From positions 1 to 59,413 of the forward strand of contig CAZJNH010000003.1 of assembly GCA_964547425.1 (NCBI GenBank): a stretch of 59,413 bases of DNA. Direction: 5' to 3'. The DNA comes from an uncultured Candidatus Saccharibacteria bacterium (GTDB taxonomy: Bacteria > Patescibacteriota > Saccharimonadia > UBA4664 > CAZJNH01). Below the pieces are notes generated by a model. That model saw only the letters and a program-made list of their open reading frames with translations, was not told where the DNA came from and did not search any database. Shown piece by piece: positions 1-31,166 of this stretch. Numbering within the stretch: position 1 is the stretch's first letter; every line of letters starts with the position of its first letter. Made by a program: the position numbers and the translations under genes.

Positions 1-3000
1 TTTCCTTTGACGTCGTCCAGTCGGTCCTGGCCGGCAACGGTCTAGGTACCAGTGGAGATGGCTTAGTTGTTAACACCGGCACTGGTTTGACGATTACCTC
101 CGACAATGTTGCCATCGACCAGGCTTCATCCCTAACTTGGACCGGTACCGAGACCTTTACACCGAGCGGTAGTAACGGCTTTGCTCTCAACTTAGATTCC
201 AACTCTTTAGCCACCATCAACCAAACCTTCACCTCCACCACTACCGCCGACGGCCTTACCTACACAATCACCAACCAATCCACTTCGGGAACCCAGCATG
301 GTCTGGTGATTTCCAACGCCGACGACGCGGCGAACGCCAGCACGGAAGGTTTACTGCAGATTAACAACAACGAAACAACCGCCAACACCGTCCCGGCCTA
401 TCTCCAGATCACCAAGGCTTCGACCGGCCCAGACACTACAGCCATCGCGTTGGATGTTTCGGACTCCGACCTTGGTGTCGCCCTAGCCATTGGTACCAAT
501 GACATTACAACTGGTGCAACTACCATCTCATCGACTGAACTGGATGTCCTAGACGGCGGCGTCAACTTCAACGAGATTGGCGCTGGCACCAACACCAATG
601 CTCTGGTCATTGGCTCTGGCGGCTCGCTCACCACCTCTGGTACCGGTACTATCACTGCCACCGATGTGGCTTGCACCGACTGTATAGCTCTAACCACTGA
701 GACTACCGGTAACTATGTGGCCTCCATCACCGCCGGTAATGGTTTAACCGGTGACGTGGCCTCTGAAGGTTCCACTCCAACCATCGCAGTCGCCTCCGCC
801 AACGGTGGCATTGTGGTCAACGCTGACAACATTGCACTAACCGTAGCACCTTCGGCTGACGGCCTGTCATCTACCACCTCATCCGGCTCCGGCCTGGAAG
901 TCCTTTCAACGGGGGTTGCCTTACTCCAGGGTTGTAGCGATACTCAAGTCCTGAAATGGAATGAAACCAGCGACGTTTGGGCATGTAATGCTGATGCGAC
1001 TGACAGTACTACATTGGCTGGCGCATACACTAACGGTTCGGCGGGGGACCAAACCATTACTCTAAGCACGGCCAATGACTCGATTATCATCAGCAACCCG
1101 TCATCTTCAGGTACGGATTCGACCTTTATGTTTGAGCTCAGTAACCTTTCTGGAACCGACAAGACAGGTCTCCTGATTGCATCGGCTGCTTCCGGGATGA
1201 CTAACGCGATCGATGCTTCCGATGCCGACATCGTGAACGCTCTGAATGTGGGTGCCAACACCATTACCGGCGCCGGTTACTTACTGACATCAACTGCTTC
1301 TGGTTTAACGGTCAACTCAACCTCGGCTGATCTTGCTCTGACCACTACAACCTCTGGCAACATCACCGTAACGCCAGGCGGAGCGGGCGATACCAGCTTC
1401 GGTATCGATGCCGACTCCGTTGTAAGCTTTACCGCCAGCGCGGTTCCGGCGATCGACATGGTAACCATCACCAACGCGGGCCAAGGGGTTACTACCTCCG
1501 GAGTAAGTGCTTTGCAAATTACCTATGCTGGTGGTTCCGGCGCGGTTGAATCTAGCGGCGAACGGATTGACTTAACGGCGGGAGGTACTGCCGCATCAAC
1601 CTGGAACGCGCTTCGAATAACGACCAGTGCTCCAGCAGCCGTTGCCATGACTGAAAACGCCTTAAAGATTGAGGGTGCAGCTGCTGGGTCAACCTCAACC
1701 CTCAATGGTGTGTTTCTTGCCAACGTCACTGGCGGTGCGGGTAATGAATATGGCTTCCATGTTGGGACTGGTTGGGACGCCGGCTTAGTCTTTGACGACA
1801 CCACGCCAACCATCAAACTTAACGCAACCGATAATACTGGTGTACTAAGCATTACTGACGCCTGTACGACCTCTTGTGCCGACGCAGGCACCGCAAACAA
1901 CAACCTGTTGCAGCTTCGGGACCTTAGCACTAACTTTGGTGCTGCTGTAACTTCCGGCGCGTTTATCAGCCGCAACTCGGCTTATGACGAGGAGTTCAAT
2001 ACCTTTAACGGCACGACTACCGGTTGTGTGACTAGCAACACGACTACAGAAACCAACACCTTGAATGCCCGGGGTGACTACGGCAGCCATGGTGGAACAA
2101 CCAGTCTATGCCAGGCTAACGCCGGTGAGCTTACTTTCAGCCTCAAACTCGGAGGTACTCTGGGCGGTAACCTCTGTAGCGCAACTCAGCTTTCAGATGC
2201 AACAGGAAACGTTAACGGTGTAGAGAGAATCACCGCAACTTCATCTGCTACCGCTACTAATACCGCGAACTGCGTTGAGACTCTTGGTGGCCAGACCGCC
2301 ACAACTTCCAACAAGATCTACGCTGCCGCAAACTTGCCTGTAATGGAGATGAAGGTAAGGCCTTCCACCCTTACCGCCTCGAGCAACAACGCTAGGGTTT
2401 ACATCGGTGCCGCTAACAGCAACACGGCTAACACCGGTAACGGCGCAGGCGAACCGCAAAACGGCATATTCTTTACGAACTGTTCTACATATAGCACAAC
2501 GGCCCCTACGGGCTGTAGTAATACTACTTGGTATGGAGTTGTCTCTAGCGCCGGCGCGGCCACGGTCGTTACGTGTACAGGTACAATGTCTACTACCAAA
2601 TTCGCGCTTTTGAGGATTGAGGTTAGAGGTAGCAGTGACGTGCACTTCTTTATCGACCCAGACGTCTCAAATGGTGTTAACGAGGTAGAATGTGGCACAG
2701 GAGCGGCCACCAATGTGCCTTCGGCCAACCTGGCCCCATGGGTACAAGCTATGTTTATGACTAACACCGCAACCTCTACGGTCCTTGACCTTGATTTCAT
2801 ACGGACCTGGCAAGACGACAACCAGCCAACGGGTGATACAAATGATCCCATCGATAGCCAAAGTGGTGTTTCCGATGACCCGTTACAGGTTGATAGCCTT
2901 TCGCCATCCGATCAATCGGGTAAGGATTCTGGATTCGACGGCAGAGTCTTGTTGTCGCAATTTATGGCGCAGACGGATGATGAGAACCAGGCTGTGTTGA

Positions 3001-4250
3001 CTTCGGGTAATGAGATCGATACTGATAGGTTGGTGGCGAAGGGTGCGATTGTGGCGCCGACTGTGACGACCGACAAGCTGCAAACTAATTCGGTGGAGGC
3101 GGCGACGGGGAAGGATATTACGCTTAAACCTGGTGCTGACGGCAAGGTCGCGATCCAGGGAGCCGATGGAGCTGTCGCGAGCATAGACGATAAAGGTAAC
3201 GCGGACTTTAACGGCTCCGTTTCGGCCGATCAGATAAGCGGTAACCAAGTGGTTGGAACCAATATCGGTCAGCGCTATTACACCAACGACTCGTCTCTCG
3301 AGGTCGGGGATCTGGTGTCGGTTGATCCGTCGCTCGAGCATGGTGTCAAAAAGGCTTCCGGGAAGAATGATCCGGGGCTGGTCGGTGTCGTGTCGACTGG
3401 ACCGGGCCTGATTGTGGGCGATATCCAGTCGCAGGGGACGGAAGTCATCGTGGCGGCCTCGGGAACCGTATCGGTCAAGGTTAATAAAGAAAACGGCGCG
3501 ATCGTGGCCGGAGATCCGCTAACATCATCTTCAACACCAGGAGTCGCGATGAAGGCAACTGGTAACGCGCCGATTATCGGGCGGTCCATTGACGCCTTCG
3601 ACGCCGATGGTGTTGGCCGAGTCCTCACGGTGGTAAACAATAGCGCCGGAACCAGCGCCGACCTATCAACTGAACTCAAGGGACTGTCCGACCGCGTCGC
3701 CCAGCTGGAGCAGAAGCTGCCGGCTGATGGTACTACTCAGACGGGGACAGACGCGACGGCTCAACCTACCGGTCAGCCTGCTCAGAGTGATCAAACTACA
3801 TTGCAGAACTTAAGCGTTCAATCCGAGACGGTAGCCATCGACCTAAACGTAATGGGAACCCTGGAAGTAGCTGGCGCGCTAACTATCGGTGGCCCGGCCG
3901 AATTCAAGGCGCCAAGTACCTTTGACTCGCTGGTAGCTTTCGTTGGTAACGCCATCTTCCACGGTAACGTCACCTTCGAGAAAGCGCCGACCTTTAGCAA
4001 CAACACCGCCGGGTTCGCGCTCATCAAGACCGGCGAGCAAACGGTTCACATCGACTTTACCGACGAATACGCCACGCTTCCGGTGGTCACTGCCAGTGTT
4101 GGCAACGGCAAATTCGCCAGCTACTCGATCAATAACGTCACCACCAAAGGCTTTGATATCGTGTTGAAGGACGTCTCAACCGATGACCTCAACTTCAACT
4201 GGATCGCCATCGCCGCCAAAGACGCCCAAACGGCGGTCAACCATCCCTAA
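1..4250 (+). CDS. giant Thr/Ser/Gly/Asn/Ala-rich secreted or cell-surface protein; the 5' end lies upstream of the window
   Basis: Frame 3 is open from the first bases of the window. The TTG at 87 is only the first start-like codon, so the gene continues upstream. It encodes >1,387 aa dominated by T/S/G/A/N/V with no internal TM segments. A coiled-coil-like 'LSDRVAQLEQKL' lies near 3,690. The many short antisense ORFs are shadows of this gene. Confidence 0.7.
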   Translation, partial: SFDVVQSVLAGNGLGTSGDGLVVNTGTGLTITSDNVAIDQASSLTWTGTETFTPSGSNGFALNLDSNSLATINQTFTSTTTADGLTYTITNQSTSGTQHGLVISNADDAANASTEGLLQINNNETTANTVPAYLQITKASTGPDTTAIALDVSDSDLGVALAIGTNDITTGATTISSTELDVLDGGVNFNEIGAGTNTNALVIGSGGSLTTSGTGTITATDVACTDCIALTTETTGNYVASITAGNGLTGDVASEGSTPTIAVASANGGIVVNADNIALTVAPSADGLSSTTSSGSGLEVLSTGVALLQGCSDTQVLKWNETSDVWACNADATDSTTLAGAYTNGSAGDQTITLSTANDSIIISNPSSSGTDSTFMFELSNLSGTDKTGLLIASAASGMTNAIDASDADIVNALNVGANTITGAGYLLTSTASGLTVNSTSADLALTTTTSGNITVTPGGAGDTSFGIDADSVVSFTASAVPAIDMVTITNAGQGVTTSGVSALQITYAGGSGAVESSGERIDLTAGGTAASTWNALRITTSAPAAVAMTENALKIEGAAAGSTSTLNGVFLANVTGGAGNEYGFHVGTGWDAGLVFDDTTPTIKLNATDNTGVLSITDACTTSCADAGTANNNLLQLRDLSTNFGAAVTSGAFISRNSAYDEEFNTFNGTTTGCVTSNTTTETNTLNARGDYGSHGGTTSLCQANAGELTFSLKLGGTLGGNLCSATQLSDATGNVNGVERITATSSATATNTANCVETLGGQTATTSNKIYAAANLPVMEMKVRPSTLTASSNNARVYIGAANSNTANTGNGAGEPQNGIFFTNCSTYSTTAPTGCSNTTWYGVVSSAGAATVVTCTGTMSTTKFALLRIEVRGSSDVHFFIDPDVSNGVNEVECGTGAATNVPSANLAPWVQAMFMTNTATSTVLDLDFIRTWQDDNQPTGDTNDPIDSQSGVSDDPLQVDSLSPSDQSGKDSGFDGRVLLSQFMAQTDDENQAVLTSGNEIDTDRLVAKGAIVAPTVTTDKLQTNSVEAATGKDITLKPGADGKVAIQGADGAVASIDDKGNADFNGSVSADQISGNQVVGTNIGQRYYTNDSSLEVGDLVSVDPSLEHGVKKASGKNDPGLVGVVSTGPGLIVGDIQSQGTEVIVAASGTVSVKVNKENGAIVAGDPLTSSSTPGVAMKATGNAPIIGRSIDAFDADGVGRVLTVVNNSAGTSADLSTELKGLSDRVAQLEQKLPADGTTQTGTDATAQPTGQPAQSDQTTLQNLSVQSETVAIDLNVMGTLEVAGALTIGGPAEFKAPSTFDSLVAFVGNAIFHGNVTFEKAPTFSNNTAGFALIKTGEQTVHIDFTDEYATLPVVTASVGNGKFASYSINNVTTKGFDIVLKDVSTDDLNFNWIAIAAKDAQTAVNHP

Positions 4251-4269: not shown

Positions 4270-5961
4270 ATGCTAAGAGGGTGGAAGAAACTGTTATTGG
4301 TATTGCTGGGCTGTATTAGCCTCAGCTTCTTGCTTTACGCCTTCAGCTTGCACGGCGCTTTTGTCCGAGACGACTTTTTATACGCCGACCGTACAGATCT
4401 TCATACTAAATCGGCGCTTTGGCATTTGTGGGGCCAGTCTTATACACCACTGAACAACCACATCGGGGTTTATCGGCCTTTGACGTTATCGACTTTTGCT
4501 ATTAATTTCATTGTTTTCGGCGGTGGTACGACCAGCTTCCATGTCGTCAACGTTATTCTCAACGGAGTGGTTATTTGGCTGGTTTTCCTTCTGGTACAAG
4601 CATTATTTGACGACGATAATCTAGCAATCCTGGCGGCACTTTTGTTCGCGTTCTTGCCGATACATACCGAAGCCATCGCGTTCGTTAAGTCCAGGGATGA
4701 GATATTGGCGGCGTTATTCGGTCTTCTTTCCTGGTTGAGTTTCATTTATTCGCAGAAAAAGAAAAAACTAAAATACCTCTGGCTGTCGCTCAGCTCGGCT
4801 TTTTTTGTACTGACCCTGCTCTCAAAAGAAACCCTGCTTACATTACCTGCGATTTTTATATTGGTGGCCTGGCTAAGAGGGGAAGCGAAAAAAATCAAAG
4901 AACTTATAGCGATTGGCTTGATCTATGCCGTGCCGCTGATACCGTACTTTTTTCTCCGCTGGCGCGTCTTAGGCCCTTCTGCGTTCGGAAACGACAATGC
5001 ACTTTATGACATCAACCCCCTTAAAGATGCAGGATTTATTACTAGATTCGCGACTGGGTGCAAGCTGGCGTTTTTGATGTTAGGCAAAACCCTCTTACCT
5101 CTGAATCTAACCGCTACATACAACTTCAACAGCGTACCCTTGATATCCAATGTCTTCAGCTCGTGGGAGGCAGTTGTAGGGCTGCTAATGCTGCTGGCTT
5201 TACTGTTCGCAGCGATTTGGCCCAAGTTCCCGAAGATGATACGAGTTGGGAGTATCGTTTTGCTCGTGAGCTACTTTATGGTTTCAAAATTTCTCTTCTC
5301 GGGCGGGGAAATAACCGGTGAACGCTGGATGTATTTTCCTTCAATCGGCTTAGTTTTAATTGGCGCCTATTTACTCGAGAAAGCGTTCAAAAAGAAAGAG
5401 TGGATTGGACTGGCTATTTTGGCTCCATTGCTCGCTTGGTATGGCTATGCCGCTATTAATCGCAACCTTGCCTGGATAAACCAGAAGACGTTAGGAGAAA
5501 GTATGATAAAGACCTCTCCCAACAGCGTTGTTAGCTACCTTTCCCTAGCTGGCTGGTACTACACCAGACAAGAGTATCCTGAGGCTGAGAAAGTAATAGA
5601 CAGAGGTAAGCAAGTGGATCCCCACTACCCACCGCTACAAGAATTTGTTGGCCAGTTGGAGTTCAAAAAGCACAATTACGAGGCCGCGGCAGCGGCTTAT
5701 CGAGACGCAATCGAACACCACGATCAGGAATATTTTACTTTTGTTTCGTACGCTCAAAGCCTAACCAAAGCCCATCATTATCTCGATGCCATCGACCTTA
5801 TCGATAATGTACTAAAACCCACATTCAAGGATCCTCAGCTGGAGTTCATAAAATCGGTCTGTTACTTCAGGCTGGGGAATAACAAAAAAGCCCTGGAATA
5901 CTTTGACTGGGGACCAAACTTAACTCTGGAGCAAAAGTGGATTCACGTAAAAGAGTACTAA
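4270..5961 (+). CDS. polytopic membrane GT-C-type glycosyltransferase with C-terminal TPR-like repeats (TMTC/PMT/ArnT-like), paralog 1
   Basis: 563 aa with about 10 hydrophobic segments. An acidic 'FSLHGAFVRDD' motif follows TM1. The blocks 'GVYRPLT', 'FAFLPIHTEAIAFVKSRDE' and 'ERWMYFPSIG' are shared with 7533..9254. The C-terminal ~150 aa are helical-repeat (TPR-like) with Y/A/E-rich pairs. Confidence 0.65.
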   Translation: MLRGWKKLLLVLLGCISLSFLLYAFSLHGAFVRDDFLYADRTDLHTKSALWHLWGQSYTPLNNHIGVYRPLTLSTFAINFIVFGGGTTSFHVVNVILNGVVIWLVFLLVQALFDDDNLAILAALLFAFLPIHTEAIAFVKSRDEILAALFGLLSWLSFIYSQKKKKLKYLWLSLSSAFFVLTLLSKETLLTLPAIFILVAWLRGEAKKIKELIAIGLIYAVPLIPYFFLRWRVLGPSAFGNDNALYDINPLKDAGFITRFATGCKLAFLMLGKTLLPLNLTATYNFNSVPLISNVFSSWEAVVGLLMLLALLFAAIWPKFPKMIRVGSIVLLVSYFMVSKFLFSGGEITGERWMYFPSIGLVLIGAYLLEKAFKKKEWIGLAILAPLLAWYGYAAINRNLAWINQKTLGESMIKTSPNSVVSYLSLAGWYYTRQEYPEAEKVIDRGKQVDPHYPPLQEFVGQLEFKKHNYEAAAAAYRDAIEHHDQEYFTFVSYAQSLTKAHHYLDAIDLIDNVLKPTFKDPQLEFIKSVCYFRLGNNKKALEYFDWGPNLTLEQKWIHVKEY

Positions 5962-6341
5962 GTCCGAACAGGGAGGGTATTACTTCCAGGAGATTATGGG
6001 AAATCGTTGCAATTATTGCCGTATCAACAGTGCTGCCGACGATCCTGCTACTAGGCTCTTACCACAAGGCTGTTGCAAGGTTTGAGGCTTTAAGTGAGTT
6101 GAGCCCGGCAGAACACACTAAAAAAGTAATCGAACTTGTTAACGCGTTAATACCAACTCAAAGTGATGAAATACCAGAGGTACTAACTTTGATTGACCCC
6201 TCAAAACTCCCGAATGATCCGTTTTTTAAAGATGCTCAAAAGGACGACGAGTACTTGATCTACCACGTCAGCGGGCGGCAGGTTTTATATAGGCCATCCG
6301 ACAACAAGATCATCAACAAGTCAGGATTTTCTACACCTTAA
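5937..6341 (+). CDS. small N-terminally membrane-anchored protein of the 'FFKDAQ..D..LIY....LYRPS..KII' family, paralog 1
   Basis: 134 aa with one TM helix ('LWEIVAIIAVSTVLPTILLLG'). The C-terminal motif 'FFKDAQKDDEYLIYHVSGRQVLYRPSDNKIIN' is shared with 9241..9618 and 10447..10848. The GTG start overlaps the 3' end of the upstream GT-C gene. Confidence 0.55.
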   Translation: MDSRKRVLSPNREGITSRRLWEIVAIIAVSTVLPTILLLGSYHKAVARFEALSELSPAEHTKKVIELVNALIPTQSDEIPEVLTLIDPSKLPNDPFFKDAQKDDEYLIYHVSGRQVLYRPSDNKIINKSGFSTP

Positions 6342-6412: not shown

Positions 6413-6418
6413 TTGACT

Positions 6419-6637
6419 ATGAGAACAACTATTACGCTGAACGACAAAATCTATAAGGCACTGAAGGTAAGAGCGGCTGAAAGTGGAGAGTCTATCTCGG
6501 CTATGGTTGAGGACGCAATAAAATACCAAGTCCTCGAAGACTTAGCGGACATTAAGGCTATCGAAGAGCGGAAGAATGAGCCATCCATCGATCTAGATAC
6601 ATTCGTGAAGTCTCTCAAAGCCGATGGCCTCCTTTAA
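6419..6637 (+). CDS. ribbon-helix-helix (CopG/RelB-type) antitoxin
   Basis: 'MRTTITLNDKIYKALKVRAAESGESISAMVEDAIK' is a typical RHH N-terminus. The gene overlaps the downstream RelE-like gene by 14 nt. The ATG at 6419 is preferred over the TTG at 6413. Confidence 0.75.
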   Translation: MRTTITLNDKIYKALKVRAAESGESISAMVEDAIKYQVLEDLADIKAIEERKNEPSIDLDTFVKSLKADGLL

Positions 6638-6890
6638 AGTCGAGCTTAAGAAGTCTGCCAGCAAGGAAATCCGGAAACTACCAAAGTCTGTCCGCCAAAA
6701 AGTAATCGCGAAGATCCAGAGGCTGGCGAATAACCCTATTCCTGCATGGGCAGAAAAAATCGCCGGTACAGAAGCTACTTATCGTTTAAGGCAAGGTGAC
6801 TATCGTATCTTGTACGAGGTTGAGGGCAAACGGCTTATCGTCCTAATTATTCGAGTGGCTCATCGGCGCGAAGTCTATCGCAATCTTTAA
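6624..6890 (+). CDS. relE: RelE/ParE-family (RelE/StbE-type) toxin
   Basis: 88 aa. 'YRLRQGDYRILYEVEGKRLIVLIIRVAHRREVY' matches the conserved RelE/StbE C-terminal core. It forms a two-gene operon with the upstream RHH antitoxin. Confidence 0.85.
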   Translation: MASFKVELKKSASKEIRKLPKSVRQKVIAKIQRLANNPIPAWAEKIAGTEATYRLRQGDYRILYEVEGKRLIVLIIRVAHRREVYRNL

Positions 6891-6931
6891 GCCGTCAGTT
6901 TGTAGGCGACGGCCATGCCTTGGTTGAAGTG
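6886..6931. repeat. right copy of the direct repeat; this is the functional 3' end of the methyltransferase gene
   Basis: The reverse complement encodes '...HFNQGMAVAYKLTA*', the C-terminus of the 6887..7519 ORF. See 6337..6375. Confidence 0.9.
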
Positions 6932-7519
6932 AGTGACTTTTCTGATTGTTAGCCCCGTTGATTTGATGGTTTTCTCGAGGTGGTCTATAGAGAAGTGGCC
7001 CATATGGGCGTTGTGCCAGACCTTGCCTTTGAACTTTTCCCAGATGCCGAAGACGATGCGAAAAGGGAGATTGCCTGAGTCTACTTCGATAATGATTGTG
7101 CTGCCGGGCTTAACGACTCGCTTCATCTCGGCGATCGCGACGGAAATGTCGTAAAGGTGCTCGATAACTTCTGTGCAAATTACAACATCGAATGAGCCGG
7201 ACTTGAAGGGAAGCTTGTGGGCGTCGGCTTGCTGGAGGTCCAGTTTCCGGTAGCGTTTCTTCCCGTAGGTGATCGCATCGGGGTAAAGATCTACGCCGGT
7301 CAGCTGAGTTTTGGGAAACCGTTTTGAGACTTCATTGAGGAACCAGCCGGAGCCGCAGCCGACGTCGAGGATGGTTTTCGCATCGGCGGGAATAAGGTCG
7401 AGAACGGCCCGTAGTTTGCCTAGGTGCCAGATTTTCTGCAGCCAGTTTAAGGTCTGGTAATAGTCCGGCGGGACTTGCTCCAAAATCTTCTTTAGTTTGG
7501 CATCAGGTTGGGCTGGCAT
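6887..7519 (-). CDS. class I SAM-dependent methyltransferase
   Basis: Motif I 'ILDVGCGSGWF', an acidic post-I 'GVDL', and 'FDVVICTEVIEHL'. 210 aa. The ATG lies 13 bp from the divergent GT-C paralog 2 start. Confidence 0.8.
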   Translation of the reverse strand: MPAQPDAKLKKILEQVPPDYYQTLNWLQKIWHLGKLRAVLDLIPADAKTILDVGCGSGWFLNEVSKRFPKTQLTGVDLYPDAITYGKKRYRKLDLQQADAHKLPFKSGSFDVVICTEVIEHLYDISVAIAEMKRVVKPGSTIIIEVDSGNLPFRIVFGIWEKFKGKVWHNAHMGHFSIDHLEKTIKSTGLTIRKVTHFNQGMAVAYKLTA

Positions 7520-7532
7520 ATACTTTAGTGTA

Positions 7533-9254
7533 ATGCTTAAGGGGTTTTTGGTTAAGAACCGTTATTGGCTGGTGGCGCTCGGTTTCTGCCTGGCCATCAG
7601 CTTTATTTTGTACGGCTTTAGCCTCCACGGCGCGTTCGTGCGCGATGACACTTTGTTTTCGCCGCGGACCGATCTGCACTATGCCGGATCACTCGGGCAG
7701 GTATGGTTCCAGACATATATTCCGGGCATCCGGGAGGTTGGGGTTTACCGCCCATTAACGATTTTTACGTTTGCGCTGAACTTCGTCGTCTTTGGGTCAT
7801 CGACGGTTAGCTTCCATGTCTTTAACGTCATATTAAACGCGCTGAACATTTTCCTGGTCTTCGCCATTTTGCGCCGGCTTTTCAAAGAAGAGATGGTAGC
7901 GATTTTCGGCGCCGCGGTGTTTGCTTTCTTGCCAATCCACACCGAGGCGGTCGCCTTCATTAAATCCCGCGATGAGTTGCTGGCGACGTTCTTTAGTTTG
8001 CTGGCTTGGCTGGTTTTTATCCGGGCCACCAAGGCGAAGGAGATTAACTTCAAGAAGCTGTGGCTCTCCGCCGGCTTTTTTGTGCTGGCCGTTCTAGGAA
8101 AGGAGACTTTGTTTAGCGCTCCGGGAGTATTCTTGGCGGTGTGGTGGATGATGGATCGGCCTAAAATTAAGGATCTGGCCCGGGTTGCCTCGGTTTACGC
8201 GACCGCCGGAGCTGGCTATTTATTGTTGAGATTGTCGGTTCTTCACCAATACGCTTTCGGTAACGACAACGGTGAGTTTGTGGTGAACCAGCTGGTCGGG
8301 GCCAGCTTAGCGGAGCGCTTGGTGACCGGGTGTAAGATTGCCTTTTTGATGTTTTCAAAGAGCTTTGTGCCGTGGAATTTGAGTTCGGTTTATAACTACA
8401 ACCAGGTACAGGTAACTTCGAATCTGTTTGGATCCTGGCAGGCTTTAGGCGGTCTAGCGATGTTGCTGGGGTTATTGGCGCTGGTTGTAATGGGAATCAG
8501 GAACAAAGCCTGGCAGTGGGCGGGAGTCGGCGCGGCGATCACTCTAATCTCCTACGCCATGGTTTCGAAGATGATCTTTTCGGGCGGGGAGTTCGCGGCT
8601 GAGCGGTGGATGTATTTTCCGTCGATCGGCTTTGCTCTAATTCTGGGCTGGGGGATCGCTTGGCTCTACCGGCAGAAACAGTGGCTAGGGTTGGCAGTAG
8701 GCGGTGCTTTACTGCTTTACTACGGTGCCGTCACGGTGCCGCGCAACTTTGCTTGGCTAAACTCCCGGACCGTCATCGACAGCTTGCTGAAGAGCGCGCC
8801 AAAGGCCGCCATAACCTACCAGACGCAAGCGTCATGGTATCTGGACCACGGCGACCCTAAAGCCTGCGAGATTGCCGCCAAAAAGGCGTTGGCAATCTAC
8901 CCCGATTACTGGGAGGCGTACGAAATGCTGTCCAGGGCGGCCTTTGCCGAGGGCGACTGGGCGGCCAACGACCGTTACTTTACGCGGGCCTACCAGCTGG
9001 CGGCACCTTACACTACTATCCGCAGCCGGATCAGCCACGCGGAGGCGCTACTGCGGTTGAAACGTTACAAAGACGCTATCGCTGCCGCCCAACAGGTAAT
9101 GAGGTTGGCGCCGACGAGGGAAGCGTATCTAATTATCGCGGCGGGCAGCTATAAGCTCTACGGCCTCGACGTTGCCAAACACTTTTTGGGCCGCAGCGGC
9201 TTTCCGGTCAACGAGGAAATCAGGCAGATGAAGGAGCTACTTGGTGAAAAATAA
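7533..9254 (+). CDS. polytopic membrane GT-C-type glycosyltransferase with C-terminal TPR-like repeats, paralog 2
   Basis: Aligns end to end with 4270..5961 ('MLKGF...FSLHGAFVRDD', 'FAFLPIHTEAVAFIKSRDE', 'ERWMYFPSIG'). The start is set at ATG 7533 by alignment with paralog 1. The ORF-track TTG at 7497 would overlap the divergent methyltransferase. Confidence 0.65.
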   Translation: MLKGFLVKNRYWLVALGFCLAISFILYGFSLHGAFVRDDTLFSPRTDLHYAGSLGQVWFQTYIPGIREVGVYRPLTIFTFALNFVVFGSSTVSFHVFNVILNALNIFLVFAILRRLFKEEMVAIFGAAVFAFLPIHTEAVAFIKSRDELLATFFSLLAWLVFIRATKAKEINFKKLWLSAGFFVLAVLGKETLFSAPGVFLAVWWMMDRPKIKDLARVASVYATAGAGYLLLRLSVLHQYAFGNDNGEFVVNQLVGASLAERLVTGCKIAFLMFSKSFVPWNLSSVYNYNQVQVTSNLFGSWQALGGLAMLLGLLALVVMGIRNKAWQWAGVGAAITLISYAMVSKMIFSGGEFAAERWMYFPSIGFALILGWGIAWLYRQKQWLGLAVGGALLLYYGAVTVPRNFAWLNSRTVIDSLLKSAPKAAITYQTQASWYLDHGDPKACEIAAKKALAIYPDYWEAYEMLSRAAFAEGDWAANDRYFTRAYQLAAPYTTIRSRISHAEALLRLKRYKDAIAAAQQVMRLAPTREAYLIIAAGSYKLYGLDVAKHFLGRSGFPVNEEIRQMKELLGEK

Positions 9255-9618
9255 ATCGTTCGGTCTGAAGTTACCGGCTGTGGTGATTGTTTTGGCGGCT
9301 TTGCTGCCGGCCGCTTACTTTTTCGGCACGTACCGGAGTATTGTTAACCGAGTTGACCCAAAAACCGTTGATCAAGAGACGCTTCCGGAGAGCGCCGCCG
9401 ATATCGTGAATAAATTAGTCGTGGTTCCGGGCGACGAGGCGCCGGAGCAGCTGACCGTGCCCAAGGCCTCGCATCTGCCGGCGAATTTTATATTTAAGCA
9501 GGCCCAGGAAAATGATATCGTCCTGCTTTACCAGCACGCAGGCCAGGCGATTTTATACCGCCCATCGACAGGGAAGATTATCGCGGAGTATCCGGCAGAC
9601 TCGTTTCGGAAGCGCTAG
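9241..9618 (+). CDS. small N-terminally membrane-anchored protein of the 'LYRPS..KII' family, paralog 2
   Basis: 125 aa with TM 'LPAVVIVLAALLPAAYFFG' and C-terminal 'IFKQAQENDIVLLYQHAGQAILYRPSTGKIIA'. The TTG/GTG start overlaps the stop of the GT-C paralog 2 gene by 14 nt. Confidence 0.55.
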   Translation: MVKNKSFGLKLPAVVIVLAALLPAAYFFGTYRSIVNRVDPKTVDQETLPESAADIVNKLVVVPGDEAPEQLTVPKASHLPANFIFKQAQENDIVLLYQHAGQAILYRPSTGKIIAEYPADSFRKR

Positions 9619-10321
9619 GCGGCTCAGTTGAACTTATCTTGAGGATTTTTATACAGCTTTCGAAAAAGACATGCCAACTTAGTTTGGAAATTCCAGTAAC
9701 GCGTTGAGTGAAGGTTATCGGTACTTCGCTGATCGAAAAACCTAACTGGCTGGCGTAGTAGGCGGTCTCAGGAAGGAAGACATAGCCAGCGGAATCCAGT
9801 CGGAGCTTGAGGATTTGGGTCAGTGCCTCCGGTTTCCAGCAGCGGTAGCCGGTGGTGGCGTCTTTGATCTTAAGGTTAAGGATTTGCCGGGCGTAGAGGT
9901 TTGCCATTCGGGACAGGATCCTCCGCCAAGTTTCCCACTTTTCGATCCGCCCGCCCGGTATGTAGCGCGAACCGATAACCAGGTCGGCGTCTTGTCGAAG
10001 CATTCGGGGGATGACTCTGGGGTCGTGTGAGAGATCGGCGTCCATCTGAATGACGCGGTCGGGATTCTGTTTGAGTGCCGCTCTGATACCGGCCAAACAT
10101 GCCGAGCCGTAGCCGGTTTTGCGGGAGCGGTGGACGACTTCGATTGGCCGTTTTTTGGCGAGGGTATCGAGAATATCCCCGGTGCCGTCAGGTGAATTAT
10201 CATCGACCGCGACCAGACGGAGATTGGGGACCCCAACTTTAAACAAACGCTCAACGTATTGGGTGATGTTTTCGGCCTCGTTGTAGGTCGGGATTACGAC
10301 CATGATCTTGGCGGGTTTCAT
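9578..10321 (-). CDS. polyprenol-phosphate sugar synthase (GT2, Dpm1/Ppm1-like dolichol-phosphate mannosyltransferase family)
   Basis: 'MVVIPTYNEAENI', 'VAVDDNSPDGTGD', 'QMDADLSHDP', 'VIGSRYIPGG' and 'DATTGYRCW' form the canonical GT2 Dpm1-type motif series. Confidence 0.85.
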   Translation of the reverse strand: MKPAKIMVVIPTYNEAENITQYVERLFKVGVPNLRLVAVDDNSPDGTGDILDTLAKKRPIEVVHRSRKTGYGSACLAGIRAALKQNPDRVIQMDADLSHDPRVIPRMLRQDADLVIGSRYIPGGRIEKWETWRRILSRMANLYARQILNLKIKDATTGYRCWKPEALTQILKLRLDSAGYVFLPETAYYASQLGFSISEVPITFTQRVTGISKLSWHVFFESCIKILKISSTEPPSASETSLPDTPR

Positions 10322-10341: not shown

Positions 10342-10370
10342 TTGCGAAGGATAAGAGTATTGGTTAGAAT
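10342..10370 (+). promoter_or_regulatory. sigma70-type promoter upstream of small-protein paralog 3
   Basis: TTGCGA(10342-10347)-17 nt-TAGAAT(10365-10370). Confidence 0.55.
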
Positions 10371-10446: not shown

Positions 10447-10848
10447 GTGTTCAAAAAGACCGCAATCGTAGTGCTCGTACTAGTTGTCGCAGGAGGTGCT
10501 GTCTTCGGAGCCAGCAAGTACAAGAAATTAAGGGATGAGAACAACAAGCTCAAGAACCCGCAGGAGCAGGCTCGGATCCAGACCGACAACCTGGTTAAAG
10601 ACGTAGGCAAGATTACCGTTTTGCCGACGGACGAAACCCCGACCGTCGCTACGGTGGCCGATGCTTCTAAGCTCAAGAACCAGGCGTTCTTCAAAGACGC
10701 CCAAAACGGTGACAAGGTGTTGATTTACACCAAGGCCAAGAAAGCGTATCTGTACCGCCCGTCGACCAACAAGATCATCGAGATCGCTCCGGTCAACATT
10801 GGCTCCAGTACTAAGTCTACGACCCCGGCAAAGACAACGACCAAGTAG
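10447..10848 (+). CDS. small N-terminally membrane-anchored protein of the 'LYRPS..KII' family, paralog 3
   Basis: 133 aa with TM 'TAIVVLVLVVAGGAVFGA' and C-terminal 'FFKDAQNGDKVLIYTKAKKAYLYRPSTNKIIE'. A strong SD 'GAAGGAGGAGGA' lies directly upstream of the GTG. Confidence 0.6.
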   Translation: MFKKTAIVVLVLVVAGGAVFGASKYKKLRDENNKLKNPQEQARIQTDNLVKDVGKITVLPTDETPTVATVADASKLKNQAFFKDAQNGDKVLIYTKAKKAYLYRPSTNKIIEIAPVNIGSSTKSTTPAKTTTK

Positions 10849-10862
10849 AGTTCGCAACTAGA

Positions 10863-10889
10863 AAGCGGTCGCCTTCGCGGCCGTTTTTT
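10863..10889 (+). terminator. intrinsic terminator
   Basis: AGCGGTCGC-CTTC-GCGGCCGTT hairpin (with G-U pairs) followed by TTTTTT. Confidence 0.7.
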
Positions 10890-10909
10890 AGTATATTTGT
10901 ACTTCGCGC

Positions 10910-10986
10910 GGGTCCTTAGCTCATTTGGTTAGAGCGCTTCCTTGACGTGGAAGAGGTGACTGGTTCGAATCCAGTAGGACCCACCA
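10910..10986 (+). tRNA. tRNA-Val (anticodon GAC), CCA encoded
   Basis: Acceptor stem GGGTCCT/AGGACCC, anticodon stem CTTCC/GGAAG with loop TTGACGT, T-arm ACTGG-TTCGAAT-CCAGT, 3' ACCA. Confidence 0.93.
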
Positions 10987-10989
10987 TTC

Positions 10990-11065
10990 GGACCTGTGGC
11001 TCAGCGGTTAGAGCACTGCATTCACATTGCAGGGGTCGTTGGTTCGAATCCAACCAGGTCCACCA
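10990..11065 (+). tRNA. tRNA-Val (anticodon CAC), CCA encoded
   Basis: Acceptor stem GGACCTG/CAGGTCC, anticodon stem CTGCA/TGCAG with loop TTCACAT, T-arm GTTGG-TTCGAAT-CCAAC, 3' ACCA. Confidence 0.93.
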
Positions 11066-11096
11066 GAATTTATTCCTCATACGCTATACTGTCTTT

Positions 11097-12944
11097 ATGC
11101 CTGACAAAGCCAAAAAACCAGTCGATTTGGAATCCTTACGCCATACCCTGGCGCATACTTTGGCGGCCGCGGTGCAGTTGATGTATCCGAAAACCAAGTT
11201 TGGTGTCGGTCCGACGGTTGAGGACGGTTTTTACTATGATCTAGATCCGGGGGTAACAATTTCGCCCGAGGATTTGCCAAAGATCGAAGCCAAAATGAGA
11301 AAGCTGATTGAGCAAGATCTGCGGCTGGAGCGCTTTGACCTCAAGATTGACGCGGCGATCAAACGCTACGAAGCGGAAAAGCAGCCCTACAAAGTCGAGC
11401 TGCTAAAAGATTTGAAACAGCACGGGACGACCAGCCAAAAAGAGATAAGCGTAACAGATATGGGAGTGGAAAAGGTTGTTGATAAAGTTACAACTGTATC
11501 CTTCTATCGGCTGGGGAAATTCGAAGATCTCTGTAGGGGTCCGCACTTGGATTCGACCGGGCAAATTGGTGCCTTCAAACTATTGCGGGTCTCGGGGGCG
11601 TATTGGCGAGGCAACGAGAAAAATCCTCAACTCCAGCGCATTTACGGTGCCGCCTTTGCAACCGATAAAGAACTCGCCGATTATCTGAAAATGCTCGAAG
11701 AGGCCGAGAAGCGGGACCACCGTAAGCTAGGAAAAGACTTAGACCTATTTGTGTTTTCCGATTTAGTTGGTTCAGGCTTACCGCTATGGACCCCTCGAGG
11801 AACGATCCTGCGAACTGAGGTTGATCGCTACGTCCAATCACTGCGCGGTCAGTATGGCTACGAAGAAGTGGCGATTCCGCACATCACTAAGAAAGACTTA
11901 TACGAAAAAAGCGGCCACTGGGCCAAGTTCGCCGACGAACTCTTCAGAATAAAGACTCGCGAGGGCCACGAGTTTGCGATGAAGCCGATGAACTGCCCGC
12001 ACCACGCCCAGATCTACGCCAGCCGCCAGCGCAGTTACCGAGATTTGCCGATCCGCTACCGGGAGACGACGATGGTTTACCGAGACGAGCAGTCGGGTGA
12101 GCTCGGTGGTTTGTCTCGAGTCAGAGCTATTACTCAGGACGATGCCCACGTCTTTTGCCGCAAAGATCAAGTCAAAGACGAGGTACTTAAGATCTGGGAC
12201 ATTGTCGAGAAATTTTACAAGACTATGGGTATGCCGGTGCGACTAAGACTATCTCTACATGACCCGGCTGAGAAGCAGGCCTATCTCGGCGATGAAAAAA
12301 TGTGGAAGGAGCTTGAGGGTGAACTAAAGGCTTTGGCCGACAAGAAGGTTAAAAAATATGAGGTTGGGATTGGCGAAGCTGCTTTCTACGGTCCGAAACT
12401 CGACTTTATGGCCAAGGACGCCATTGGCCGGGAGCATCAAGTGGCCACCATCCAACTCGACTTCAACCAACCCGAAGGCTTTGATTTGACCTGCGTAAAC
12501 GAGAAGAGTGAAGCGGAACGGATTGTCATGATCCATGCCGCCATCGCCGGCTCCTTCGAGCGTTTCTTGGCGGTCGTCATTGAGCATTTCGCGGGCAAGT
12601 TCCCGCTGTGGCTGTCGCCGGAGCAAGTTAGGCTGATTGTCGTCAATGACACAAAGTCCTTAGCTAAATTCGCTAGCACCATTGAGACCCAGCTAAACCA
12701 GGCGGGTTTGAGAGTCTCGGTCGACAGCTCGAATGAATCGGTCGGCCGCAAGATCCGCGAGGCTGAATTGATGAAGGTGCCTTATACGCTAGTGGTCGGA
12801 GACAAAGAGGCCAAAAGTGGGAAGGTTACTCCAAGAATTAGATCGGAGCATGGTTCCGAGAATCCAAAAGAGATCAGCATCGGCCAATTCATCGCCACCC
12901 TCGCAACCGAATACGAATCCCGCGCCCCCCGCTCGAGCCTGTAA
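11097..12944 (+). CDS. thrS: threonine--tRNA ligase, short form lacking the N-terminal TGS domain
   Basis: Starts 'MPDKAKKPVDLESLRHTLAHTLAAA' (the SAD/editing HxxxH motif is at residue ~15). Class II motifs 'FAMKPMNCPHH', 'YRDEQSGELGGLSRVRAITQDDAHVF' and 'GPKLDF' are present, followed by an anticodon-binding C-terminus. The ORF-track start at 10947 is rejected because it runs through two tRNA genes. Confidence 0.92.
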   Translation: MPDKAKKPVDLESLRHTLAHTLAAAVQLMYPKTKFGVGPTVEDGFYYDLDPGVTISPEDLPKIEAKMRKLIEQDLRLERFDLKIDAAIKRYEAEKQPYKVELLKDLKQHGTTSQKEISVTDMGVEKVVDKVTTVSFYRLGKFEDLCRGPHLDSTGQIGAFKLLRVSGAYWRGNEKNPQLQRIYGAAFATDKELADYLKMLEEAEKRDHRKLGKDLDLFVFSDLVGSGLPLWTPRGTILRTEVDRYVQSLRGQYGYEEVAIPHITKKDLYEKSGHWAKFADELFRIKTREGHEFAMKPMNCPHHAQIYASRQRSYRDLPIRYRETTMVYRDEQSGELGGLSRVRAITQDDAHVFCRKDQVKDEVLKIWDIVEKFYKTMGMPVRLRLSLHDPAEKQAYLGDEKMWKELEGELKALADKKVKKYEVGIGEAAFYGPKLDFMAKDAIGREHQVATIQLDFNQPEGFDLTCVNEKSEAERIVMIHAAIAGSFERFLAVVIEHFAGKFPLWLSPEQVRLIVVNDTKSLAKFASTIETQLNQAGLRVSVDSSNESVGRKIREAELMKVPYTLVVGDKEAKSGKVTPRIRSEHGSENPKEISIGQFIATLATEYESRAPRSSL

Positions 12945-29907: not shown

Positions 29908-30768
29908 TCAACTCTTAGTACTACGGCCGCAGATGAAGCGGATTTTCTTGTCGGTTAGCCTTACCGCCACCGGAGTCCGCCCCGACAGCTTGGAGTCGAT
30001 CATCACACTGGCGTCAGGCTTGGTCTCAATCACTACGCGGTTGGCCTGGATTCTGGTGGTAAAACTCTCATCCGACACTTGGCGGTTGGTTAACAGCTGC
30101 CAAACCAAGGTGGTGATTTGGCGGCGGTTGGGCCGGTCACTAAAGCTGATGATTAGCTTGTTGGGGCTTTGAGGATTTTGAAATTTCTGATTAGTAATCC
30201 AAAGGTAAAACACAGTGGCTTCGATCTTGAGATTGTCGTCGATTTGCAGTTTGCATTTGAACTCCTCGAAGTTTTTGGTGTGGGAGAGGCTTTGTTTAAT
30301 CTGGCGCAGCCGGCCTTTGGCACCGCCAGGTCCGCTTTCAACCTGCTTGTCCCAATCGGCCGGGAAGCCAACCGCCAGGTTAGACAAGAAGTAGTGCGAC
30401 CCGGCGGCCATCAAATTAAAACTGGTCAACCGGCGGCTGGCCAGCAGCTCAGCGGCCTGCTGCCAGTTATATACTCCTAGCTTTTTGGCCAACGTGTTGT
30501 GGCTGCCCAACGGGACGATGCCTAAGGCGACGTTGTCTTTTTTGATCCCGTTGATGATTTCGTTGACGGTGCCGTCACCGCCGACCGCGACTATGGTGTT
30601 GTAACCTTTTTGGACCGCGGCGTAAGCCAGCTTGGTAGCGTCACCCGGGCCAGTGGTCTTTACGAATTCACCGCCGATACCCAGCTCAACCAGCCGTGCG
30701 CGCAGCCGCTGTTCTACCTGACCGACGCCGCCTCGTCCCGCTGCCGGATTAAGGATGTAGTAGTACAT
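29908..30768 (-). CDS. diacylglycerol/lipid kinase family protein (YegS/DagK-like)
   Basis: 'YYILNPAAGRG', 'IVAVGGDGTVNEIING' and 'LGIVPLGSHN'. Confidence 0.85.
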   Translation of the reverse strand: MYYYILNPAAGRGGVGQVEQRLRARLVELGIGGEFVKTTGPGDATKLAYAAVQKGYNTIVAVGGDGTVNEIINGIKKDNVALGIVPLGSHNTLAKKLGVYNWQQAAELLASRRLTSFNLMAAGSHYFLSNLAVGFPADWDKQVESGPGGAKGRLRQIKQSLSHTKNFEEFKCKLQIDDNLKIEATVFYLWITNQKFQNPQSPNKLIISFSDRPNRRQITTLVWQLLTNRQVSDESFTTRIQANRVVIETKPDASVMIDSKLSGRTPVAVRLTDKKIRFICGRSTKS

Positions 30769-31166
30769 TAGGCCGGCTCGTCAGGCTCAGGAGAAGATTG
30801 GGGGCCGTCGGTCATTACCGTTTGCCCGGAGAAAACGGCTCCGTGGTTGATCGCCAGCAGCCCGGTGTGGACGTTGCCTTTGACCTTGCCGCTTGATTCA
30901 ATCACCGTTTCACTTTCGCACTTAATGTTACCAACCAAATGGCCGCCAACCTTAACGTTTCGGGCTGACACGTTTGCCTCGATGACGCCATTAACACCGA
31001 TCGTTAAGTTGCCGCCGGTTTTGATACTGCCCTTGAGCTCGCCGTCTATACTGACGTCGCCGTCACTGACCAGCGTGCCCTTTACCTTCACGCCGGTGCC
31101 AATCACGGTCTCGGTTTCGGTCATTGGGCTGTCGATTCTTTTAGCCACGGGATGCCGCCTGCTCAC
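30768..31166 (-). CDS. bactofilin-family polymer-forming protein
   Basis: Beta-helical repeats 'VIGTGVKVKGTLVSDGDVSIDGELKGSIKTGGNLTIGVNGVIEANVSARNVKVGGHLVGNI'. Confidence 0.85.
   Translation of the reverse strand: MSRRHPVAKRIDSPMTETETVIGTGVKVKGTLVSDGDVSIDGELKGSIKTGGNLTIGVNGVIEANVSARNVKVGGHLVGNIKCESETVIESSGKVKGNVHTGLLAINHGAVFSGQTVMTDGPQSSPEPDEPA

Follow-up and report, generated by a model that had tools for sequence, protein, structure and literature searches.

The window analysed here comprises 59,413 nucleotides (nt) from an uncultured Candidatus Saccharibacteria bacterium of a soil metagenome (positions 1 to 59,413 of contig CAZJNH010000003.1, forward strand) and contains, near its 5' end, three small open reading frames (ORFs) of one family of bitopic membrane proteins, which together with its gene context is the subject of this study. 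The ORFs, named S1, S2 and S3, are all located on the plus strand; S1 (5937..6341, 134 amino acids, aa) and S2 (9241..9618, 125 aa counted from TTG 9241) are divergent paralogues while S3 (10447..10848, 133 aa), with its transmembrane (TM) segment, helix, conserved beta-meander ectodomain and S/T-rich tail, is the canonical member. A preliminary description of the region had placed three related ORFs at exactly these positions, and the near-identical C-terminal blocks that it quoted were recovered verbatim from each. Alignment of the three proteins revealed 25 invariant columns, and pairwise BLAST gave E-values of 1e-12 to 1e-17, far beyond chance. Each protein contains a single strongly hydrophobic N-terminal segment (19-residue Kyte-Doolittle mean 2.2-2.35), in agreement with the one N-terminal TM helix assigned to it earlier. 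The linker motif (V/L)P.DE.P, described as common to all three, is found in S2 (VPGDEAP) and S3 (LPTDETP), but in S1 it reads IPTQSDEIP, with one residue extra.

S1 and S2 both overlap the 3' end of a glycosyltransferase gene of the GT-C type. S1 starts with a GTG at 5937, preceded by GGAG, and overlaps GT-C1, with its TAA stop at 5959-5961, by 25 nt. GT-C2 stops at 9252-9254, which gives the previously noted overlap of 14 nt when S2 is read from the TTG at 9241; a likelier start is the GTG at 9244, situated 6 nt 3' of GAAGGAG, and the overlap is then 11 nt. In its 3' end S2 overlaps the convergent gene GT2 (9578..10321, minus strand). For S3, a GGAGGAGGA ribosome-binding site was identified together with a promoter-like site at 10342-10370, and a clear terminator follows at 10857-10892; the gene appears to form a monocistronic unit, as proposed before. 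The regional count of promoter-like sites does not exceed the shuffled expectation. The S3 protein shares 81% identity with the orthologue from a related Saccharibacteria metagenome-assembled genome (MAG; loci L083/L084), with a dN/dS of 0.10. Since this is a coding signature and thousands of protein-level homologues exist, the coding status of the small ORFs can be regarded as secure.

When searching protein databases for homologues, 1,620 matches were obtained in a 90%-clustered database, together with 6,694 clusters at 50% identity (E <= 1e-3), 5,849 of these at E <= 1e-10, and related genomes are among those that harbour the family. Its members are 131-274 aa long and, where named at all, almost always annotated as 'hypothetical'. 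Loci were identified in Saccharibacteria, Uhrbacteria, Woesebacteria, Gottesmanbacteria, Roizmanbacteria, Nomurabacteria, Moranibacteria, Magasanikbacteria, Levybacteria, Daviesbacteria, Chisholmbacteria, Berkelbacteria and others, and in the samples examined the family is restricted to the Candidate Phyla Radiation (CPR/Patescibacteria). In a scan based on sequence motif only, 106 of 120 among the matches listed were true members; the 14 non-members are all chance matches, of which 13 come from non-CPR genomes with proper labels and one lies at the edge of a contig. No member was found when scanning 2.9 million viral contigs, and neither S1-S3 nor the family profile gave anything meaningful in Pfam, NCBIfam, PHROGs or the PDB sequences, in line with the earlier statement that the domain was not recognised. 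By comparison of sequences the S family ranks among the most conserved CPR-restricted proteins found in this analysis, the ectodomain of S3 being 53-92% identical to that of 149 family members across the radiation. Against a family hidden Markov model built without the window sequences S3 scores 215 bits, as compared to 74-78 bits for S1 and S2 (S1 78 bits). The latter two lack the consensus motifs ETPTVATV, NGDKVLIY and IAPVNLG as well as the S/T-rich tail, and a metagenome scan for their sub-branch came out empty. S3 is accordingly the canonical orthologue, and S1 and S2 are a rare, fast-evolving sub-branch, rare because no other protein in the databases groups with them.

At many CPR loci S paralogues are arranged in tandem, usually with a long form, fused to the domain LytR_C, behind a short one (L016, L019, L021, L026, L033, L034, L061, L071, L074 and others), and at L028 and L080 three to four long copies lie in a row. 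Separate S loci were also found within one genome, e.g. in CP066686.1 (L007, L277) and in CAVPHZ010000001.1 (L238, L280). True S members are present in many TPA_asm MAGs titled 'uncultured Gammaproteobacteria/Bdellovibrionales/Pseudomonadales' (L011, L018, L020, L022, L024, L028, L033, L045, L046, L049, L050, L052, L059, L065, L070 and many of L221-L340), one of which, OZ246414.1, is a 915-kb complete chromosome carrying a CPR-type S locus; the taxonomic labels of these MAGs look wrong.

To describe the topology, 120 family members were compared. They contain one TM segment, with 5.2 K/R and 0.25 D/E in the 15 residues before it and 3.4 K/R and 2.0 D/E in the 15 residues after it, and in 94 of the 120 the N-terminal side is the richer in K/R. 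The excess of K/R before and of D/E after the segment supports a predicted topology with the N-terminus in and the C-terminus out (N-in/C-out). An extracytoplasmic placement of the C-terminal part is further suggested by relatives that carry a C-terminal fusion to LytR_C (PF13399), which is an extracytoplasmic envelope domain. LytR_C was found C-terminally in six of eight long family members tested, and with a local profile in 42 of 101, 45 of 90 and 70 of 119 family ORFs in three sets of loci (the last among the matches listed). No Pfam match to LytR_C is given by S1-S3, and no ORF in the window carries it. Most family members continue after the ectodomain into a tail rich in S/T/N/G/Q, and in those with LytR_C this domain comes after the tail.

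In structure prediction with AlphaFold2 the TM helix is joined by a linker to an extracytoplasmic helix, after which beta1, a short helix and a three-stranded meander form a compact unit, the predicted ectodomain thus being one helix and a four-stranded beta-meander. In the full-length model of S1 the TM helix spans 17-38 and the C-terminal domain has pLDDT values >90, while the ectodomain of S3 modelled alone gave a mean pLDDT of 89 and a pTM of 0.75. Foldseek searches with these two models revealed nothing significant (best E = 0.078 and 0.29 in PDB, best E = 0.1 in BFVD), and the sub-significant matches are only generic beta-meander or single propeller-blade-like fragments. Two further candidates were tried and rejected, a diverged LytR_C (hhalign probability 3% with the conserved beta-meander, the S-domain) and a type IV pilin or pseudopilin (the N-termini of S1-S3 are without the prepilin motif G↓F/M-x-x-x-E, and there is no pilin Pfam match).

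The same gross architecture, i.e. N-in, a TM segment, an extracytoplasmic helix and a small C-terminal region in a protein of similar size, is found in the bitopic divisome proteins FtsL, DivIC and FtsB, and S could be an unrecognised CPR protein of this type or a RodZ-like one. Two of 120 homologues have precomputed DivIC (PF04977) matches, automatic names given by the Joint Genome Institute include RodZ and FliL, S3 has a weak match to FtsL (TIGR02209, E = 0.09), and the family is near-universal and sometimes located beside dnaG-rpoD. These profile matches, however, do not come near the curated cut-offs and cover the TM/helix region (12.7 bits for S3 with TIGR02209 as compared to 42.45), and S1-S3 have no Pfam match to DivIC. 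A conserved beta domain is missing from FtsL and DivIC, the S genes studied here are not placed in a dcw-type cluster, and multiple paralogues per locus or genome, LytR_C fusions and the linkage to a giant gene described below would all be atypical, which makes a divisome function highly improbable.

The gene neighbourhood of S was compared in 80 species-representative genome loci, 80 metagenome loci and 106 motif-selected loci (these among the matches listed) with flanks of +/-4-6 kb. De novo clustering of the neighbours revealed one dominant partner, a very large protein encoded upstream on the same strand; its median length is 1,199 aa, and in many cases it runs past the 6-kb flank at >1,900 aa. 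The cluster is present in 50 of 80 S loci, in 34 of them at position -1 on the same strand, and in 40 of the 56 loci having at least 4 kb of upstream sequence. When only immediate neighbours were counted, a protein of at least 800 aa was found upstream on the same strand in 33 of 59 cases, as compared to 4 of 58 downstream and 55 of 578 for all ORFs, and the median gap is 34 nt. The linkage was replicated in 19 of 33 metagenome contigs and in 26 of 54 loci of the motif-only sample (among the matches listed). The recurrent partner of S is a giant secreted protein, in ~50-70% of loci, a link not drawn in the preliminary description.

A giant gene is also located at the very start of the window, where a frame on the plus strand is open from base 3 (3..4250, listed as ORF 87..4250) and encodes >1,415 aa, the N-terminus being cut by the window edge. 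Its C-terminal 350 aa are homologous to the giants directly upstream of S in other CPR genomes, and homology among the giants is confined to these C-terminal ~350 aa. The relationship was detected with locus-derived profiles, a direct search with the giant C-terminus giving 10 matches, with low-complexity words swamping the candidates. Complete giants in the fetched loci begin with a hydrophobic segment and are therefore exported. The first conserved region, module A (3207..3671, about aa 1041-1195), is homologous to the C-terminal intramolecular auto-chaperone of the phi29 pre-neck appendage protein gp12, of the Peptidase_G2 type; its profile matches PDB entry 3gqh with E = 1.7e-4, the entries 3gqh, 6qz9 and 3suc together spanning E = 1.7e-4 to 9e-3, and Pfam Peptidase_G2 (PF11962) matches 5 of 18 giants. 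It is followed by a coiled-coil segment and by module B (3777..4247), which is beta-rich and has an H-type-lectin-like domain at its end (Pfam H_lectin matches the window giant with E = 1.1e-4 and the relative P0271 with 3.5e-8; module B profile against Helix pomatia agglutinin E ~0.04). In one relative Peptidase_S74 and H_lectin occur together. Taken together, the gp12-type auto-chaperone, the H-lectin-like end and the N-terminal hydrophobic segment identify the giants as phage-tailspike-like surface fibres. Further downstream in the window, an ORF (30768..31166, minus strand) is weakly matched (E = 0.003) by the module-B profile.

The alignment of module A to gp12 opens at the cleavage motif S↓DFAEYF, whose strongly conserved counterpart in the CPR giants is G(A/S)D(L/V)AExY. 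Acidic residues of the gp12 motif are important for auto-cleavage. In most other CPR giants the consensus is GADLAExY, while the window giant has GTNIGQRYY and its orthologue in L084 GTDIGQRYY. With the acidic residues substituted, the fibre of this lineage may be a non-cleaving variant.

Other genes recur near S as well. A class-A beta-lactamase/penicillin-binding protein (PBP)-like gene (Pfam Beta-lactamase2, E ~1e-37) is placed between the giant and S, at -1 to S, in L018, L033, L036 and others, which hints at a link to peptidoglycan. Directly downstream (+1) of S in L025 and 12 other loci is a gene for a 444-aa protein with a signal peptide, the repeated sequence GYAWS.N.GWI.F and a C-terminal TM anchor, for which no Pfam match was found. 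Further recurrent neighbours are Ig-like surface proteins and, in some lineages, dnaG-rpoD.

In the window the giant gene and S3 are separated by a cassette, the order being giant, GT-C1, S1, a toxin-antitoxin pair, a methyltransferase, GT-C2, S2, GT2 and S3. GT-C1 (4270..5961, plus strand), a multi-pass GT-C glycosyltransferase with C-terminal TPR, starts 19 nt after the giant gene and is 43% identical to GT-C2 (7497..9254, plus strand), a PMT_2 and TPR glycosyltransferase (Pfam PMT_2 33 bits, cut-off 26.1 bits, and TPR matches). The S-adenosylmethionine-dependent methyltransferase (6887..7519, minus strand) belongs to the same cassette and is conserved in L083/L084, and GT2 is similar to the polyprenyl-phosphate sugar synthases Dpm1, ArnC, AglJ and PpgS and presumably supplies the lipid-linked sugar donor to the GT-C enzymes. 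In L083/L084 the order is giant, methyltransferase (minus strand), GT-C, an S-like gene (129 aa, overlapping GT-C by 1 nt), GT2 (minus strand), canonical S and the threonyl-tRNA synthetase (ThrRS) gene; this order is kept in the window, where an additional segment of GT-C1, S1 and the toxin-antitoxin genes is placed right after the giant gene. GT-C1, GT-C2 and the GT-C of L084 are mutually 42-43% identical and their coupled S copies 31-39%, as compared to 67% for the giant, 63% for GT2, 59% for the methyltransferase and 81% for the canonical S when window and L084 are aligned. Judged by these values, GT-C and the coupled S diverge fast together, and they appear to have been duplicated as a unit. 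The simplest reading of the history is that a widespread 'giant then S' pair was split by an inserted glycosylation cassette, after which the unit of GT-C and S was duplicated. The locus is thereby explained as an operon for surface fibres into which genes for O-glycosylation have moved.

The overlaps of S1 and S2 with GT-C1 and GT-C2 had led to the proposal of translational coupling and a 1:1 partnership, with S as an accessory, chaperone or substrate-recruiting subunit of the TMTC/PMT-like GT-C enzymes. Several observations fit such a function for the family as a whole: the overlaps themselves, the same arrangement in L083/L084, a Daviesbacteria locus (L087) with S directly upstream of a GT-C orthologue, and the joint duplication and accelerated divergence just described. 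The expectation that homologues would always be neighbours of GT-C genes failed, however, in both directions. A GT-C relative was found within the flanks of S in 1 of the 80 genome loci, none of the 80 metagenome loci and 2 of the 106 motif-selected loci among the matches listed, both of the latter being weak, on the opposite strand and non-adjacent; over all 266 loci this is about 1%. Starting from GT-C relatives (57 loci, obtained with an alignment query, a single-sequence scan being empty), an S-family member was found within +/-5 kb in 3 of 57. Among ten close GT-C orthologues (33-42% identity) S is adjacent in two, downstream of GT-C in L084 and upstream in L087, and relaxed searches for hidden divergent copies of S downstream of the others revealed none, leaving 8 of 10 without S. 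In addition, S3, the canonical and most conserved copy, is uncoupled from GT-C, and the coupled S1 and S2 stand apart from all other database members. The GT-C link is not a property of the family, and because of these neighbourhood counts a family-wide GT-C subunit is refuted as a model and must be held very unlikely; the coupling stands for S1 and S2, and an accessory or substrate-recruiting role is reasonable for this divergent sub-branch only.

Small membrane subunits of lipid-linked glycosylation machines are known, e.g. DPM2/DPM3, Ost4-type subunits and GtrA. S1 and S2 resemble them in being small membrane proteins, coupled to GT-C in a cassette with a GT2 lipid-sugar synthase, but show no homology to them, have an outward S-domain and are coupled to GT-C in one lineage only. 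A GtrA-like flippase was rejected as S has one TM segment and GtrA four. GT2 (247 aa) has no visible C-terminal TM segment in its sequence and resembles enzymes of the TM-less Dpm1 type, which depend on a partner in the membrane; a DPM3-like anchor for such a GT2 was likewise considered for S and rejected, since the conserved S-domain is predicted to face outward, which argues against S being the membrane partner of GT2.

The reading of these data that we tentatively prefer, holding it possible rather than probable, is that the S proteins are membrane-tethered envelope adaptors for giant surface fibres and that S1 and S2 have been recruited to a glycosylation cassette. By its predicted topology an S protein begins in the cytoplasm with a short, basic N-terminus; its single TM helix leads to a helix outside the membrane, and this to the very highly conserved S-domain of ~55 residues and usually an S/T/N/Q-rich tail. 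The outward S-domain could dock, or aid the assembly of, the C-terminal module (gp12-type auto-chaperone and H-lectin-like domain) of the Sec-exported giant fibre, this module being the final part of the fibre that would clear the membrane, while the S/T-rich tail, plus LytR_C where present, might connect the complex with the zone of wall building. In the window genome and its near relative the ancestral pair of giant and S would have been interrupted by the glycosylation cassette with its GT2 lipid-sugar synthase, GT-C and methyltransferase genes. S1 and S2, co-duplicated and translationally coupled with GT-C, would there most likely be adaptors that present the fibre or other S/T-rich envelope substrates for O-glycosylation, with the sugar coming from a lipid donor made by GT2. 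What the data show is the membership, distribution and conservation of the family, its predicted topology and fold, the LytR_C fusions, the neighbourhood counts and the domains of the giant; we infer from gene context the adaptor mechanism, any contact of S with the giant or with GT-C, the direction (anchor or chaperone) and the glycosylation of the giants.

Several points weigh against an adaptor of giant fibres. The case for it is built on gene neighbourhood and domain fusion, and ~30-50% of the S loci are without a giant gene nearby. S3 itself is apparently monocistronic and placed 6 kb from the giant gene. Known phage-type auto-chaperones are self-sufficient and an extra factor is not obviously needed, and with the acidic residues of its cleavage motif substituted the window giant may form an atypical fibre. 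Moreover, the S-domain is ~70% identical across CPR classes as compared to 30-50% for the C-terminal modules of the giants, and because it outconserves them its primary ligand may be something more invariant, such as the wall, a lipid-linked component or core machinery.

This last point leads to a different explanation, in which S is a general envelope scaffold. Mycobacterium tuberculosis VirR (Rv0431) and Cei (Rv2700) are LytR_C solo proteins, bitopic envelope-integrity factors that take part in wall homeostasis and bind LCP ligases via LytR_C (PMC11832169), while the biochemical function of LytR_C is still described as unknown (PMC11481543). In a scaffold of this kind the S-domain would bind an invariant component (peptidoglycan, a polyprenyl-linked glycan or an LCP/PBP-type enzyme) and organise the assembly of wall or surface glycopolymer, and the giants, GT-C and PBP-like genes would neighbour S merely as clients of one wall-assembly zone. 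The very high conservation of the ectodomain would be expected from this, as would the LytR_C fused in about half of the family with VirR and Cei as precedent, the PBP-like gene recurring between giant and S, and the loci where S lacks a giant or is placed beside housekeeping genes such as dnaG-rpoD or the ThrRS gene. Coupling to GT-C can also be accommodated, GT-C enzymes using lipid-linked sugar donors. Against it, no LCP-domain gene is found among the recurrent neighbours of S, the S-domain is not homologous to LytR_C, and the ~8-fold, upstream-specific enrichment of giants with operon-like spacing exceeds what loose co-location would give. We consider the scaffold doubtful when taken on its own, yet it is nearly as good an explanation as the adaptor, and it accounts better for an S-domain that outconserves the giant modules and for the 30-50% of loci without a giant.

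VirR and Cei are, like S, small, bitopic and N-in/C-out, but they differ in that S1-S3 are without LytR_C, that the S-domain is unrelated to LytR_C and as far as Pfam shows not present in VirR/Cei-type proteins, and that the S family is confined to CPR in our samples. S1-S3 are probably best described as bitopic accessory proteins of the envelope. Their nearest comparison is the LytR_C solo proteins, but because they lack LytR_C they are not members of that group. Another comparison, closer to the adaptor, is with phage fibre assembly factors of the Tfa and T4 gp38/gp57A class, which like S are encoded by a small gene directly behind a long fibre-like one, the folding nucleus being at the C-terminus of the fibre. 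S shows no similarity in sequence or fold to anything in PHROGs or BFVD and was absent from the viral contigs, and phage fibre chaperones are soluble and cytoplasmic whereas S is membrane-anchored and predicted to be extracytoplasmic; as to the intramolecular chaperones of gp12 and endosialidase, the gp12-type auto-chaperone resides in the partner of S, the giant, and not in S. In MYRF a trimerising phage-type auto-chaperone and a single-pass anchor are combined in one polypeptide, the precursor being held at the membrane until assembly or cleavage. S and the giant would provide the same two elements but with the anchor as a separate protein, which is a pure analogy.

A more far-reaching version of the adaptor reading would make the S-domain protein a conserved receptor in the membrane, or a platform for assembly, of a surface organelle found throughout the CPR. 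The organelle would be built from giant, phage-tailspike-derived fibres, each bearing a lectin head as well as a gp12-type auto-chaperone, and S paralogues would in some lineages also route the fibres to GT-C O-glycosyltransferases. We regard this version as unlikely, but if true it would represent an undescribed envelope assembly pathway for the display of host-contact fibres in ultra-small episymbiotic bacteria. Much of bacterial diversity belongs to the CPR/Patescibacteria, which live attached to the cells of their hosts, and very little has been described of how they build their envelope. The S family is large, uncurated and without a fold relative, and as far as libraries and literature were searched its tie to tailspike-like giants and to LytR_C is undescribed. 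S is a strong candidate for a core component of the CPR envelope, and the giant tailspike-like proteins genetically tied to it are obvious candidates for host attachment. With a 55-residue domain and one TM helix S also offers a small tractable handle for work in genetically manipulable Saccharibacteria, and the family merits a Pfam or NCBIfam definition.

Some further features of the locus may be mentioned. Directly after S1 are genes for an RHH (CopG-like) antitoxin and a ParE-family toxin (6413..6637 and 6624..6890, with a 14-nt overlap), which were not found in the syntenic L083/L084 and are part of the extra segment with GT-C1 and S1 that is seen only in the window genome. Downstream (3') of S3 two tandem tRNA-Val genes (10910..11065, anticodons GAC and CAC) are followed by the ThrRS gene. 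The 665-aa ThrRS ORF, as listed (10947..12944), begins inside the tRNA-Val genes, and its true start is probably the ATG near 11097 (MPDKAKKP...).

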